This document shows positions 5,764 to 35,198 of a stretch of DNA of 64,000 nucleotides, one piece after another. The stretch lies in NCBI GenBank assembly GCA_016703605.1, contig JADJBU010000008.1, forward strand, positions 91,819-155,818, given 5' to 3'. The DNA comes from Candidatus Villigracilis adiacens. GTDB lineage: Bacteria > Chloroflexota > Anaerolineae > Anaerolineales > Villigracilaceae. Made by a program: the position numbers and the translations under genes. The notes under the pieces were generated by a model, which saw only the letters and a program-made list of their open reading frames with translations, did no database searches and was not told the origin of the DNA. How positions within the stretch are numbered: the first letter of the stretch is position 1; each line of letters opens with the position of its first letter.

Positions 5764-6372
5764 CTACGCCAAATTAATCTTCCAATTTTTTACAACAAAC
5801 CGCCACGGCTTGGAAAACCACGGCTCCGGTGTCTTATTTAACCCCACACGGGGACTAATCGTCACGCTTTTATCGGGGACTTTAACCCCCGCCTCGATCC
5901 ATAGACCTGAGCCTGATTCCGTTAAATCGGCATAATTCTCGCGGATGGTGATTCCCAGCGCCTGAGTCAGTTTCCCCGGACCGAACGTATCCCGCCCCTG
6001 ACGGCGCTTCATCATCACCTCCACGCCTTCCACGGGCTGAATCGCGCGGATCAACACCGCCGCCGGGAAGCCCTCCCGCTCGGTGACGACGTTGAACATC
6101 CAATGATTGCCGTATGTGAAATAAATGTATGCGTGTCCCGGCTCGCCGTACATGGGATCGGTGCGCTTCGTCCGCCCGGCTTTGGCGTGGCAGGCAAGGT
6201 CTTCCTCGCCGATATAACCTTCGGTCTCGGTGATGAGTCCCGCCAGTGTTTTGCCGCGCGAAATATAGACCAGCCGCGCCCCAAGCAATTCGCGGGCGAC
6301 GGTCAGCGTGGGACGGTTGTAGAATTTGCGGGGGAGTGGAAGAGATTTGACCACGGAGATCACAGAAGACAC
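5764..6372 (-). CDS. mpg: DNA-3-methyladenine glycosylase (Mpg/AAG family)
   Basis: VARELLG, ITETEGY, YIYFTYGNH, AVLIRAIQP, GPGKLTQALGI, PRVGL, PWRF. Confidence 0.92.
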   Translation of the reverse strand: MSSVISVVKSLPLPRKFYNRPTLTVARELLGARLVYISRGKTLAGLITETEGYIGEEDLACHAKAGRTKRTDPMYGEPGHAYIYFTYGNHWMFNVVTEREGFPAAVLIRAIQPVEGVEVMMKRRQGRDTFGPGKLTQALGITIRENYADLTESGSGLWIEAGVKVPDKSVTISPRVGLNKTPEPWFSKPWRFVVKNWKINLA

Positions 6373-6379
6373 AGAGAGG
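6350..6379. repeat. Left arm of 9-mer inverted repeat flanking the GxxExxY gene
   Basis: ACCACGGAGAT CACAGAAGA CACAGAGAGG; inverted counterpart at 6814-6841. Confidence 0.8.
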
Positions 6380-6389
6380 ATTTAGAGGA

Positions 6390-6782
6390 TCAGTTAGCGA
6401 GTCTTTTAATGCCGCCGTGTTTGAGCATTTTGACGTTGAAATTCAGCAGTAAACCGATTTTTCCGCCGGAGATTTTCAAGTAGGAAAGCAGTTGTGCTTC
6501 GTGTATGGCAGCCAGACTTTCCACAGATTTTATCTCGACGATAACGGCATCGTTTACCAGCAAGTCCAATTTGTACCCGCAATCCAGGAATATGCCTTTG
6601 TATTTCAAGGGTAGTGGAACTTCTTGTAATGCTTCATATCCGCGTTGAAGTAATTCATATCTCAAACATTTGCGGTAAGCGGATTCCAGCAAGCCCGGAC
6701 CGAGGTTTCGGTGAACCTCGATTGCCGCGCCAATAATGGCTTCGGTGATCTTATTGAGTTCATCCATGCTCAATTGTTTCAT
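6390..6782 (-). CDS. GxxExxY protein (PD-(D/E)XK nuclease-like fold)
   Basis: [10 protein letters not shown] motif, [26 protein letters not shown]; AGGAG RBS before the ATG at 6782. Confidence 0.93.
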
Positions 6783-6813
6783 CGTATCTCCTTCCTGTCT
6801 CAACTCTATTAAA

Positions 6814-6841
6814 CCTCTGTGCTCTCCGTGTTCTCTGTGGT
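6814..6841. repeat. Right arm of 9-mer inverted repeat flanking the GxxExxY gene
   Basis: CCTCTGTG CTCTCCGTG TTCTCTGTGGT; reverse complement is ACCACAGAGAA CACGGAGAG CACAGAGG. Confidence 0.8.
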
Positions 6842-6846
6842 GAATC

Positions 6847-31877: not shown

Positions 31878-32723
31878 ATGTTCAAAGCATCCCTGCGTTC
31901 CGCGGTATATCAGGCTGAAAAAAAATTGCAGCGCCTGCGCTTCCCGTCCGCACCCGCAAATCTGCCCATTCTGCTCGGAATTTCCTTCCCGAAAAGCGGA
32001 ACTCACCTGCTCGACCAGATCCTGCTCGGCTTTGCAAACGTCGCGCCGTATGCCAAACGCCTGCATTCGTTTTACGCCGAATACGAAGGCGAGAGCGGAA
32101 AGAAACGCGAACCGCAACAGGCGCTCGACTGGCTCGACTCGCTTCGCCCGCGCGACATCGCCTCCGCCCATCTCTTCGCCCGACCCGAAGCCGTCGCCCG
32201 CGTCTGTAGCCCAAAATTCGCGCCCTACTTCATCTTCCGCGACCCGCGCGACGTGGTCGTCTCGCACGTCTTCTACGTCACCGACATGGAAGCCCGCCAC
32301 GTCCATCACGACTACTACCAATCCCTGCCCGACTTCAACGCGCGTCTCAAAATCAGCATCCTCGGCAGACCCGACGCGCGAGTGGAATTCCCAAACATCG
32401 CCGCCCGCTTCGAACCTTATCTCGGCTGGCTCGATCATAAGGAAGTATTGACGCTTCACTTCGAGGACCTGATCCACCGCCGCGAGTCGACTCTCCTCTC
32501 GATCATGGATCACCTCCTCAGCCGCGTCCCGCTTCCCACCAGCCGACAGTTGATCCTCGCTTCGCTTGAAGCCTCCATCAACCCGACAAAATCCCCGACC
32601 TTCCGCTCTGGCAAGACCGGCGAATGGAGGAAACATTTCACCGACGAACACAGGGAGATATTCAAAGATGTGGCGGGTGATCTGTTGGTGAAGTTGGGGT
32701 ATGAGAAAGGTGGGGAATGGTGA
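31878..32723 (+). CDS. Sulfotransferase (PAPS-dependent)
   Basis: ISFPKSGTHLL (5'-PSB), FRDPRDVVVS (3'-PB), FRSGKTGEWRKHFT; stop codon supplied by the heptamer array. Confidence 0.88.
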   Translation: MFKASLRSAVYQAEKKLQRLRFPSAPANLPILLGISFPKSGTHLLDQILLGFANVAPYAKRLHSFYAEYEGESGKKREPQQALDWLDSLRPRDIASAHLFARPEAVARVCSPKFAPYFIFRDPRDVVVSHVFYVTDMEARHVHHDYYQSLPDFNARLKISILGRPDARVEFPNIAARFEPYLGWLDHKEVLTLHFEDLIHRRESTLLSIMDHLLSRVPLPTSRQLILASLEASINPTKSPTFRSGKTGEWRKHFTDEHREIFKDVAGDLLVKLGYEKGGEW

Positions 32724-32770
32724 ATAGGAAATAGGAAACCCATTCCCCATTCACCATTCCCCATTCCCCC
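32712..32770. repeat. ORF-less inverted heptamer hairpin (AATGGTG/CACCATT type)
   Basis: GGGGAATGGTGAAT (32712-25) is the perfect reverse complement of ATTCACCATTCCCC (32749-62). Confidence 0.85.
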
Positions 32771-33718
32771 ATGCCCTGCTCCCTCATCATCCGCGCCTAT
32801 AACGAAGCCCAGCACATCGGACGTTTGCTCGAAGGAATCAAACAGCAGACCGTCCGCGATGTGGAGGTTATTTTGGTTGATTCCGGCTCGACCGACGCGA
32901 CGGTTTCCATCGCCGAATATTTTGGCGCGAGAGTCGTCCACATCCCCCCGGCGGAGTTTACCTTTGGGAGGTCGCTCAACCTGGGGATTAAGTCCGCGAG
33001 CCGCGAATTGATCGTCATCGCCAGCGCGCATGTCTACCCCGTCTACCCCGATTGGCTGGAGACTCTGCTGCGTCCATTTCAAGATGATAGCGTGGCATTG
33101 ACCTACGGCAAACAGCGCGGACACGCAGTCTCGAAATATTCCGAGCATCAGATATTTCATCAATGGTATCCAGATGCAGGTAGTCTCGATCAAGCCACAG
33201 CATTTTGCAATAACGCCAATTCTGCCATTCGAAAAAGTTTGTGGAAGCAACATTCCTACGACGAAACGCTCACTGGCTTGGAAGATTTGGAATGGAGCAA
33301 GTGGGCGAAGGGGCAGGGACACAAGATCGCCTACGCCGCCGAAGCCGAGATCGTCCACATCCACAACGAGACGCCGCGCGGAGTCTATAACCGTTACCGC
33401 CGCGAAGCCATGGCATTGCGGAATATTTATCCTGAAACAAATTTCAATTTTTATGACTTTTTGCGCCTGACCTTTACGAACATCGTCAGCGACCTTTGGC
33501 ATTCCTCGCGCGAAGGGGTTTTCTTGAAAAGTTTTATCTCCATCTTCTGGTTTCGATTCGCCCAATTCCACGGCACCCGCATGGGACACCGCGAGACCAG
33601 CCTTGTAACGCCGCAATTGCGCGAGACGTTCTATTATGCGCGGGAACGAAAGAGGAAAGAGGAGAGAAAGAGGGATGTGGAGCCGATTCGGTATAATGAT
33701 AGGAATGGTGAATGGTGA
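32771..33718 (+). CDS. Glycosyltransferase family 2 (rhamnosyltransferase-like)
   Basis: SLIIRAYNE, VILVDSGSTD, FCNNANSAIR, EDLEW; stop codon lies within the heptamer array. Confidence 0.9.
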   Translation: MPCSLIIRAYNEAQHIGRLLEGIKQQTVRDVEVILVDSGSTDATVSIAEYFGARVVHIPPAEFTFGRSLNLGIKSASRELIVIASAHVYPVYPDWLETLLRPFQDDSVALTYGKQRGHAVSKYSEHQIFHQWYPDAGSLDQATAFCNNANSAIRKSLWKQHSYDETLTGLEDLEWSKWAKGQGHKIAYAAEAEIVHIHNETPRGVYNRYRREAMALRNIYPETNFNFYDFLRLTFTNIVSDLWHSSREGVFLKSFISIFWFRFAQFHGTRMGHRETSLVTPQLRETFYYARERKRKEERKRDVEPIRYNDRNGEW

Positions 33719-33787
33719 ATGGTGAATGGTGAATGGTGAATGGTGAATGGTGAATAGGTAATAGTGAATAGTGAATAGGTAATGGTG
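33704..33787 (+). repeat. Heptamer array x12 upstream of the four-helix-bundle gene
   Basis: (AATGGTG)7 AATAGGT AATAGTG AATAGTG AATAGGT AATGGTG. Confidence 0.95.
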
Positions 33788-33801
33788 AACAGGAGTTTGA
33801 T

Positions 33802-34251
33802 GTGAGCAGCGATAATATTCAAGGGTTGGAGACATTGGAGACTTGGAAAAAAGCAAGGGCATTTTCGCTTGTTGTTTACAAGGAAGTTCTGCCGCAATTG
33901 CCTGCTGATGAGAAATGGCATTTGAATCAGCAAATTCGACGTTCCGCTCAAAGCGTCCCAGCCAATCTTGCCGAGGGACATGGACGATTTTATTATCAAG
34001 ACAACGTCCGTTTTTGCTATATCGCTCGCGGCTCGCTGACAGAGACCTACACTCACCTTCTTCTTGCTCGTGACCTGGGATATATTTCAAGCGGACTCTT
34101 TGATCGTCTGAAAAGTCAAATCGAAGAACTCATTCGAATTATCAATGGGTACATCGCCTATTTGAAACGTTCTAAACGCGGCGAAAAAGAACCCGGAGCC
34201 AATTACGCTGTTCGCGATGAATCATCAGAGTATTTGACTGAAGATATCTAA
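33802..34251 (+). CDS. Four-helix-bundle protein (23S rRNA IVS protein / Avd-like family)
   Basis: LETWKKA, LPADEKWHLNQQIRRSAQSVPANLAEGHGR, YIARGSLTET, ARDLGYI; AGGAG RBS then GTG. Confidence 0.93.
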   Translation: MSSDNIQGLETLETWKKARAFSLVVYKEVLPQLPADEKWHLNQQIRRSAQSVPANLAEGHGRFYYQDNVRFCYIARGSLTETYTHLLLARDLGYISSGLFDRLKSQIEELIRIINGYIAYLKRSKRGEKEPGANYAVRDESSEYLTEDI

Positions 34252-34256
34252 TCTCC

Positions 34257-34326
34257 CCCTATTTCCCTATTCCCTATCCCCTATCCCCCATTCCCTATTC
34301 CCTATCCCCCATTCCCCATTCACTAT
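34257..34326 (+). repeat. Inverted heptamer array (about 10 units) downstream of the four-helix-bundle gene
   Basis: TCCCTAT/CCCCTAT/CCCCCAT/TCCCCAT/TCACTAT units, complementary (about 6/7 with G-U) to the upstream ATGGTGA/ATAGTGA units. Confidence 0.92.
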
Positions 34327-34334
34327 TTCTCCCC

Positions 34335-35198
34335 ATGACCAATTCACTATTACCCTACTCACTTTCCCCCGCTTCCGCCCACCCCATCCCCGCCCTCGCG
34401 GACTTGATGACTCGCAGTTTCGAGGGCTATCTCGTGCCGATCAACATCACCGAGGCGGTCATGCACACCATGATCCGGCGCGACGGGATTGACCTGACCG
34501 CCAGCCGCGTATTGACCAAAGATAACGAACCCGTCGGCATCGCCTTCATCGCCCGCCGCGGCTGGACGAGTCGACTCGCGGCGATGGGGATCACGATGAA
34601 TGTCCGCAAGGACGGCGCGGGGACGTGGACGATGGAGCAACTCATCGAAGAAGCAAGAGGACGCGGCGAAAAGGAAATGCTGCTCGAAGTCATCGAACAA
34701 AACACGGCGGGGGTGAAGTTGTACGAGAAGGTCGGTTTCAAAAAGATGCGCAGGCTGGTGGGTTATAAACTCGACCTCACCTCTGCTCCCGCCGCCGGGG
34801 ACAGCGGCTTGAGCAAACAGATGGATATCGAAGAAATAGACATCCGCGAACTTGCCCGCACAGTCGCATACCACGGATTGAAAGACCTGCCCTGGCAGTT
34901 ATCCGGCGCGACCATCATGCAATACACCCCGCCCGCGCGCGCCTTCAAACTCAACGACGCCTATTGTCTCATCAGCAACCCCGAAGGGGCGGACATCGCC
35001 ATCCATTCGGTGCTGGTCAAAGCCCGGTCGCGCGGAGCAGGCTTGAGCGCGGTCTTGATGCGCGGTCTGTTCGCCAAATTCCCAAACAAAATCTGGCACG
35101 TCTCGCCGATCTATCCCGAAGAGATGGGCTTCATCTTCGAACACGTCGGCATGGAACGCGAGCCGCTTTCGCAGTGGCAGATGTCCCGCGTTTTGTAA
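34335..35198 (+). CDS. GNAT family N-acetyltransferase (tandem GNAT)
   Basis: RLAAMGITMNVRKDGAG, LEVIEQNTAGVKLYEKVGF; second degenerate GNAT half with ARSRGAGLS. Confidence 0.85.
   Translation: MTNSLLPYSLSPASAHPIPALADLMTRSFEGYLVPINITEAVMHTMIRRDGIDLTASRVLTKDNEPVGIAFIARRGWTSRLAAMGITMNVRKDGAGTWTMEQLIEEARGRGEKEMLLEVIEQNTAGVKLYEKVGFKKMRRLVGYKLDLTSAPAAGDSGLSKQMDIEEIDIRELARTVAYHGLKDLPWQLSGATIMQYTPPARAFKLNDAYCLISNPEGADIAIHSVLVKARSRGAGLSAVLMRGLFAKFPNKIWHVSPIYPEEMGFIFEHVGMEREPLSQWQMSRVL

Follow-up and report, generated by a model that had tools for sequence, protein, structure and literature searches.

Within bacterial rRNA, intervening sequences (IVSs) that bear an open reading frame (ORF) have been of unsettled origin and purpose since the early 1990s, and it was within rRNA intervening sequences that the four-helix-bundle (4HB) protein family PF05635/TIGR02436 was first found. 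The family is large and widespread, and we know of no role for it outside diversity-generating retroelements (DGRs). Here, a 64,000-nucleotide stretch of DNA from Candidatus Villigracilis adiacens (the window) was analyzed with respect to a 4HB gene that lies between two tandem heptamer arrays of opposite sense. The window corresponds to C8:91819-155818 of a 4.44-Mb genome (G000; 26 contigs, 99.45% complete) whose nearest named relatives are metagenome-assembled genomes of the Anaerolineales (Chloroflexota). The arrays and the 4HB gene together constitute a single inherited unit, termed a hairpin-armed cassette. Its class is a large one, that of stand-alone PF05635 genes with inverted arrays of 7-nt, less often 8-9-nt, units.

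The closest described systems are the ORF-bearing 23S IVSs. The helix-45 IVS of Coxiella burnetii contains an S23p gene, tandem GACAGAT heptamers and a stem of 28 bp that RNase III cuts, and ORF-bearing 23S IVSs are also present in Leptospira, Brucella and Xanthomonas (PMC4990558). What the cassette has in common with these elements is a long stem of terminal inverted repeats whose loop holds the same protein family, a probable position inside the host transcript without a promoter of its own and, as in Coxiella, where copy number varies between strains, tandem heptamers beside the ORF. The resemblance to IVSs that had been drawn in a preliminary description of this DNA is real. Unlike 23S IVSs, the cassette is situated between two protein-coding genes instead of within an rRNA helix, its arms consist almost wholly of tandem units and reach ~80 bp, and RNase III is seemingly absent from G000. 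Since it is located in mRNA and not in 23S rRNA, the cassette is not itself a member of the IVSs.

Inverted heptamer arrays without a named gene are already known as convergent intergenic pairs, e.g. GGGAATC in Xanthomonas and GGGGAYT in Nostoc, for which no enclosed gene family was named (PMC4692102). The arrays examined here are likewise convergent tandem 7-nt arrays in intergenic DNA, and they resemble intergenic heptameric simple sequence repeats and cyanobacterial short tandemly repeated repetitive sequences in their 7-nt units, often in inverted pairs, and in copy numbers that vary between close relatives. In contrast to the intergenic heptameric repeats, the inverted pair here surrounds one particular gene family, with units that vary by locus. 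A search of the literature open to searching found no description linking heptamer arrays with the PF05635 family. The locus adds a genus-level junction set, a negative G-U test, a symmetry argument concerning polarity, and apparent RNase III loss.

Transposable elements of the miniature inverted-repeat type (MITEs) and repetitive extragenic palindromic (REP) sequences with their mosaic elements are also short inverted-repeat DNA present in many copies at gene junctions, and G000 contains REP-like hairpins and RAYT-type genes. In contrast to these elements, the cassette arms are tandem arrays, and no conserved terminal sequence, target duplication or cognate transposase was seen; with nine copies, nine arm units and neither duplication nor transposase, identification as a transposon or MITE was rejected. 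Avd of DGRs belongs to the same homologous 4HB fold family (PF05635), but the focal locus is without an adjacent reverse transcriptase or template/variable repeat pair, which rules it out as part of a DGR; the DGR of G000 is located elsewhere and its PF05635 copy is armless.

The cassette at the GT2-GNAT junction

The cassette occupies the whole junction between a family-2 glycosyltransferase (GT2) gene and a GNAT acetyltransferase gene in a co-directional sugar-modification operon, its neighbours being sulfotransferase, GT2, GNAT and cytidylyltransferase genes (Table 1). Two opposed heptamer arrays around a 149-aa 4HB ORF had been described from the sequence, and every observed element of that description holds on direct reading and with Tandem Repeats Finder. 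The left array (period 7) comprises seven perfect copies of GAATGGT followed by AATAGG/AATAGT variants. The right array, also of period 7, comprises 10 copies of CCCTATT/CCCCATT at 34257-34327, and CACTATT units extend it to ~34352, overlapping the first GNAT codons. The claims that the left array supplies the GT2 stop and that the right array runs into the GNAT start were both borne out. The stop (TGA, 33716-33718) is array-encoded and the last six GT2 codons are within the left array; in relatives GT2 ends in EPIRYN(K) immediately before the stop, without an array-encoded extension. The GNAT ATG at 34335 lies 7 nt past the point where Tandem Repeats Finder ends the right array; the GNAT N-terminus is longer by ~5 residues, encoded by array units. 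Scanning the cassette borders for promoter-like and terminator-like sites yielded none above chance.

The arms are complementary. Predicted RNA folding of 33690-34370 gave -205 kcal/mol compared to -176 +/- 6 kcal/mol for shuffles (z = -4.7), and the arm-to-arm duplex gave -75 kcal/mol compared to -51 +/- 5 kcal/mol with a shuffled right arm. Local alignment of the left flank with the reverse complement of the right flank scored 30-31, while the 99th percentile of mismatched pairs was 15-17.5. The minimum-free-energy structure contained 81 inter-array pairs, only six of them G-U. A stem of ~70 bp assisted by G-U pairs had been proposed for this locus; the pairing of the arrays is retained, but not the reliance on G-U.

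The encoded protein matched PF05635 with 116.5 bits (cut-off 33.8) and TIGR02436 with 110.4 bits (cut-off 24), establishing family membership. Sequence homology to XCC0516 (PDB 2GSC), which is pentameric, was detected (E = 4.5e-13 over residues 10-115). A tail motif, [IVL]R[ED][ED]xxxEY, occurs beyond the Pfam domain of 4HB proteins, often after GEKEPGA (e.g. window 34186-34251; loci L004, L006, L009, L186 and L194), and the C-terminal tail of the window protein contains AVRDESSEY. The motif was present in four of nine G000 paralogs and in 10 of 60 genus loci, and may represent a docking peptide.

Table 1. Positions of the cassette, its host genes and the adjoining hairpin within the window
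Feature	Coordinates	Strand	Remarks
Gene-less heptamer hairpin, GGGGAATGGTGAATAGGAAATAGG / CCCATTCCCCATTCACCATTCCCC	32711..32769	no strand	Between sulfotransferase and GT2 genes
GT2, upstream host gene	32771..33718	+	
5' arm, 12.4 tandem heptamers, C-poor	33703..33789	+	Sequence and Tandem Repeats Finder
AGGAG, Shine-Dalgarno-like, 6 nt 5' of the GTG start, outside the stem	33791..33795	+	Direct reading
4HB gene, 149 aa, GTG start	33802..34251	+	PF05635 / TIGR02436 profiles
3' arm, 10 tandem heptamers plus trailing CACTATT units, G-poor	34254..34352	+	
GNAT acetyltransferase, downstream host gene	34335..35198	+	

The C-rich arm of the gene-less hairpin upstream of GT2 is also a complement of the cassette's left array (A0:A1 duplex, -44 kcal/mol). 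In a relative (G013), the sulfotransferase-GT2 junction contains a 4HB cassette with related GGGAATT arms.

Recurrence of the layout within the genome and across phyla

G000 contains ten PF05635 genes, and nine of these are flanked by inverted 7-8-nt arrays, whereas at most 35 of ~4100 other genes are bracketed in this manner (Fisher 8e-18). The nine armed paralogs have nine different units: GGTTGRY, GGCAGAA, GAATGGT, GAGTAGA, AAGGTCA, AAGTAGAC, GGTAATT, ACGATTT, and GAAAGAG. The remaining copy (C26:543603-543881) is a genuine DGR Avd without arms and serves as an internal control. Its surroundings (C26:541911-547282) represent a complete DGR comprising a target with an FGE-sulfatase-fold C-terminus and a variable repeat, Avd, an A-rich template repeat, and a reverse transcriptase (PF00078). 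The earlier proposal that array, ORF and inverted array are one unit is upheld by the nine armed paralogs among the ten and by an ortholog in a relative (G019) that retains both the slot and the unit family.

Further sets covered the same order (39 loci, 15 genomes), the genus (60 further loci) and, in named genomes, more than 10 phyla (80 loci). The phyla and groups covered were Chloroflexota, Bacteroidota, Balneolaceae, Planctomycetota, Verrucomicrobiota, Acidobacteriota, Gemmatimonadota, Nitrospirota, Pseudomonadota, Actinomycetota, and the Candidate Phyla Radiation (CPR). For each locus the left flank was compared with the reverse complement of the right flank and scored against percentiles of a mismatched-pair null, which is inflated because orthologs have arms in common. 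The 99th percentile of this null was reached or exceeded by 32 of 49 order loci, 14 of 57 further genus loci and 35 of 71 cross-phylum loci, and the 95th percentile by 42 of 57 further genus loci and 61 of 71 cross-phylum loci. Periodic inverted 7-nt flanks, for which a check in homologs had been suggested, were thus found far above the mismatched-pair null. Most of the ~170 related genes sampled, from more than 10 bacterial phyla, have the inverted-array layout.

Of the 122 armed loci, 93 have a period of 7 nt, 22 of 8 nt and six of 9 nt, with a median arm of 31 nt. At 104 of 121 loci the upstream stop was inside the left arm or no more than 20 nt from it. The first start downstream was a median of 11.5 nt beyond the right arm, and the upstream neighbour was co-directional in 73 loci versus one.

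A reading in which the layout has no function would hold that slippage-prone repeats pile up at junctions, that symmetry arises by template switching and that the 4HB gene is a passenger. Template switching over a 450-nt loop is, to our knowledge, not an established route to keeping arms alike. Such a passive origin would be in line with the surplus of heptameric repeats, convergent pairs among them, known from bacterial intergenic DNA without a named gene (PMC4692102), with arrays around ordinary genes (ilvC-like, leuD-like, pheS, and GT2), and with the absence of G-U bias, but it is at odds with the arming of nine of ten 4HB genes versus <1% of other genes, with an association that recurs over phyla and places arms exactly at ORF borders, and with the armless state of the DGR Avd copy. 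It is considered highly improbable.

Arm pairing and the operon transcript

The favoured reading, given an even chance here, is that the cassette is an IVS-like insert tolerated within the operon transcript. The cassette would have no promoter of its own and be expressed by read-through from the upstream gene. The arms would zip in the polycistronic RNA to form a stem of ~80 bp with the 4HB cistron looped out, and this stem would bring the stop of the upstream gene close to the start of the downstream gene, so that the insert could be tolerated in the operon as an intervening sequence is in 23S rRNA. Where a host has RNase III, the stem would probably be cut like an intervening sequence, while in G000 it would persist. 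With tandem units the zipper should tolerate register shifts; slippage may therefore lengthen, shorten or replace units with pairing kept, which would explain fast unit turnover. Arms were recognisably similar only where proteins were >65% identical, and within one junction arms pair with their own partner and not across lineages; arm complementarity outlasts turnover of arm sequence.

In ~5% of cassettes (loci L061, L117, L151, L168, and L171) a whole heptamer hairpin (L + R') is present in the leader and an extra R arm follows 3' of the ORF, an arrangement that permits alternative pairings. R' and R are direct repeats in these cassettes, and recombination between them would remove the ORF cleanly.

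Several points weigh against the insert reading. The antisense RNA folds equally well (-206.5 kcal/mol) and arm mismatches are without G-U preference (125 sense-compatible versus 142 antisense-compatible, p = 0.33, in addition to 303 transversions), so the sequence favours neither RNA nor DNA as the level of pairing. A ribosome terminating within the left arm would melt the stem, a difficulty for the proposed approach of stop and start. Furthermore, no RNase III gene was detectable in G000 using TIGR02191, PF14622, same-genus tblastn and a motif scan, and IVS-like cutting therefore cannot be assumed in this genome. Finally, the cross-phylum loci were collected with a four-sequence alignment as query, which biases the sample towards members similar to this subfamily; the armed fraction in it is 50-85%. 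G-U asymmetry was rejected as a sign of RNA-level selection, given the lack of bias.

An RNase III gene was found in 35 of 41 relatives. At the syntenic rnc site of G000 (C22:516.8k) the block gives way to unrelated DNA midway along a 900-kb contig, which makes an assembly gap an unlikely explanation for the missing gene. G000 may be a natural rnc-null genome.

The composition of the arms was also examined for polarity and register. The 5' arm had G>C in 108 cassettes versus C>G in eight, and the corresponding values for gene-less hairpins were 78 versus 12. A purine-rich 5' arm as proof that the ORF strand matters was rejected, since the inverted repeat is strand-symmetric, so that an excess of G over C, present at 108 of 122 loci, reads the same from either strand, and since gene-less hairpins share this polarity. 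AGT was enriched in array units (44 observed versus 27 expected, z = 3.8). A general RGT-N4 register of the units was not accepted; it is a trend only, and many units are without it.

Junction history, gene-less hairpins and heptamer load

Comparison of the GT2-GNAT junction among same-genus genomes revealed filled, scarred and empty states. In G019 the junction contains the orthologous cassette, with a protein 84% identical and the AATAGTG unit family in only 3-4 units per arm. In G012 a deletion scar remains, in which left heptamers and the first ~10 4HB codons are fused to GNAT. The junction is empty in G018, G015 and G003; relatives with GT2 and GNAT adjacent, which had been named as a check on the cassette, are thus at hand. 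The junction is an insertion hot spot. Armless unrelated inserts occupy it in G013, G011 and G020 (loci L013, L017, and L025), consisting of a ~200-aa ORF, a nucleotidyltransferase-HEPN (MNT-HEPN) pair and an alpha/beta hydrolase.

Orthologous cassettes keep one junction genus-wide, e.g. the pheS-pheT junction is filled in at least 10 genomes, which speaks for vertical inheritance with loss. Within the pheS-pheT junction, three cassette lineages were distinguished, 50-58% identical between and 74-90% within lineages, each with its own arms, whereas pheS and pheT themselves are 82-92% identical across all three. At the C2:120k junction, the cassette of G007 shares just 27-30% identity with the others, against 92% and 74% for the genes on either side. 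Divergent cassettes between conserved flanks indicate that junctions have been re-occupied or exchanged, and homologous recombination via the conserved flanks would suffice for lineage replacement. An apparent ortholog group at C22:578k was dropped because its flanks are 26% identical and not syntenic.

Replacement of this kind raises the alternative of a DNA-level mobile element, with the arms as its ends, single-strand hairpins or a cruciform recognised structurally, and 23S intervening sequences as copies that landed in rRNA. Different cassette lineages in one junction (pheS-pheT, and C2:120k in G007), presence/absence that includes clean empty junctions with translational coupling (C5:43k and C5:160k), the lack of G-U bias with both strands folding alike, and the GT2-GNAT hot spot with its other inserts in relatives are all compatible with such an element. 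Neither a transposase nor an integrase was found in or beside the cassettes, however, and no target-site duplication was visible against empty sites. The G000 paralogs are 18-57% identical and do not share arms, so no recent copies or transposition were seen and sequence-specific end recognition is impossible. Cassette orthologs also stay put in one junction across the genus, and recombination of conserved flanks explains replacement without element-encoded mobility. Overall, a mobile element is judged unlikely. For the mobility suggested in the preliminary description the signs are indirect at most: junction replacement and presence/absence fit it, while the recombinase, target duplication and recent copies that would accompany it were not seen.

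Gene-less hairpins were examined at the same junctions. G000 contains 95 gene-less hairpins of 7/8-mers, and a single criterion was used in the census for junctions and background alike. Ten junctions have a cassette in relatives and none in G000; four of these hold a gene-less heptamer hairpin (background rate 2.3%, P = 5e-5), and one more can be recognised by eye. The remaining contents are one decayed armed 4HB pseudogene, two REP-like hairpins and two clean overlapping stop/start junctions. The pseudogene, an eleventh 4HB gene in decay (C2:701090-701420), is intact at its start, MTTAKRFEELEVWQNAKDL, but degenerate thereafter; it keeps its GGTTGAAGG / CCTTCAACC arms, and relatives have an intact ortholog at this position. 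Hairpin units often match other G000 arrays and not the orthologous cassette, e.g. the hairpin at C7:205.9k has the focal GAATGGT/CCCTATT pair. Gene-less hairpins and cassettes are related kinds. The hairpins may be derivatives of cassettes, targets for them or independent relatives. Derivation, as suggested earlier, is favoured by their presence in four of the ten junctions with cassettes in relatives and disfavoured by units that are often unlike those of the orthologous cassette.

The heptamer load of the genome bears on a further alternative, a protein-repeat system in which a pentameric 4HB ring (as in Avd and XCC0516) would bind its own arm units as RNA or single-stranded DNA, serving autoregulation or the maintenance or generation of arrays genome-wide. 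A typical arm of 4-6 units (median 31 nt) is near five binding sites, the units are enriched in AGT (z = 3.8), and the unit family of each cassette is also abundant as gene-less arrays in G000. The 808 period-7 arrays of G000 derive from only 184 canonical units (GGTAATT, 86; AATRGKG family, ~73), and their density is 184 per Mb in this genome, with 10 PF05635 copies, the highest among the genomes sampled, versus 41-55 per Mb in three relatives with 0-4 copies. This density difference would suit a protein-repeat system, but heptamer arrays persist in genomes without PF05635 matches, and G004, with four copies, equals G000 in GGTAATT-type arrays; a simple link from 4HB copy number to heptamer load was rejected as inconsistent across genomes. 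Moreover, the top conserved protein motif, QIRRS..S..ANIAEG, is invariant while units vary, and arm and protein sequences are uncorrelated below ~65% identity, for which reason a protein-to-unit recognition code was rejected as a long-range rule. A protein-repeat system is on balance distinctly unlikely.

Cassettes and gene-less hairpins may also be parts of one system, in which stand-alone PF05635 genes with inverted heptamer hairpins colonise rRNA helices and the cistron boundaries of operons, the cassette is moved or exchanged whole, gene-less hairpins are the ORF-free form, and a 4HB pentamer acts on the arms. This unifying reading is tentative, possible rather than probable. Were it true, a large protein family would be tied to an unexplained excess of 7-nt repeats. 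With the same build present at ordinary operon junctions of many phyla, intervening sequences can be regarded as a special instance of a wider type of cassette. The 4HB protein gains a concrete candidate nucleic-acid partner, its own heptamer arms, and the PF05635 family is linked to the heptamer surplus long noted in bacteria. Junctions in filled, empty, scarred and replaced states occur naturally in the genus, as does one apparent RNase III-null member.

Unit families are lineage-specific and volatile among the relatives compared (G000-G040). For example, (GGTAATT)3 with no more than two mismatches was present 165 times in G000, 166 times in G004, and 98 times in G002, compared to zero in the complete same-genus genome G009 and one in G012. 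A stretch of ~1 kb of near-pure poly-G/poly-C in G000 (C6:80640-81593), with ORFs translating to PPPP... and GGGG..., looks like an assembly or sequencing artefact.

Inverted heptamer/octamer arrays were also observed around ordinary genes, namely GT2, ilvC-like, leuD-like, pheS, and a gene of 334 aa (window 32740-33729; G000 C8:7773-8931, C8:12388-13023, C2:523086-524214, and C26:431528-432663). These genes are bracketed because consecutive operon junctions have one unit family in alternating sense. PDDEXK_3 genes (PF13366, GxxExxY) represent a second small-gene family with inverted tandem arrays, here of ~9-nt units (CACGGAGAG, ACGCGAAWG, and CACGAAGGA), at window 6345-6846 (minus strand) and at G000 C6:55828-56344, C13:15.4-16.1k, and C22:852k.

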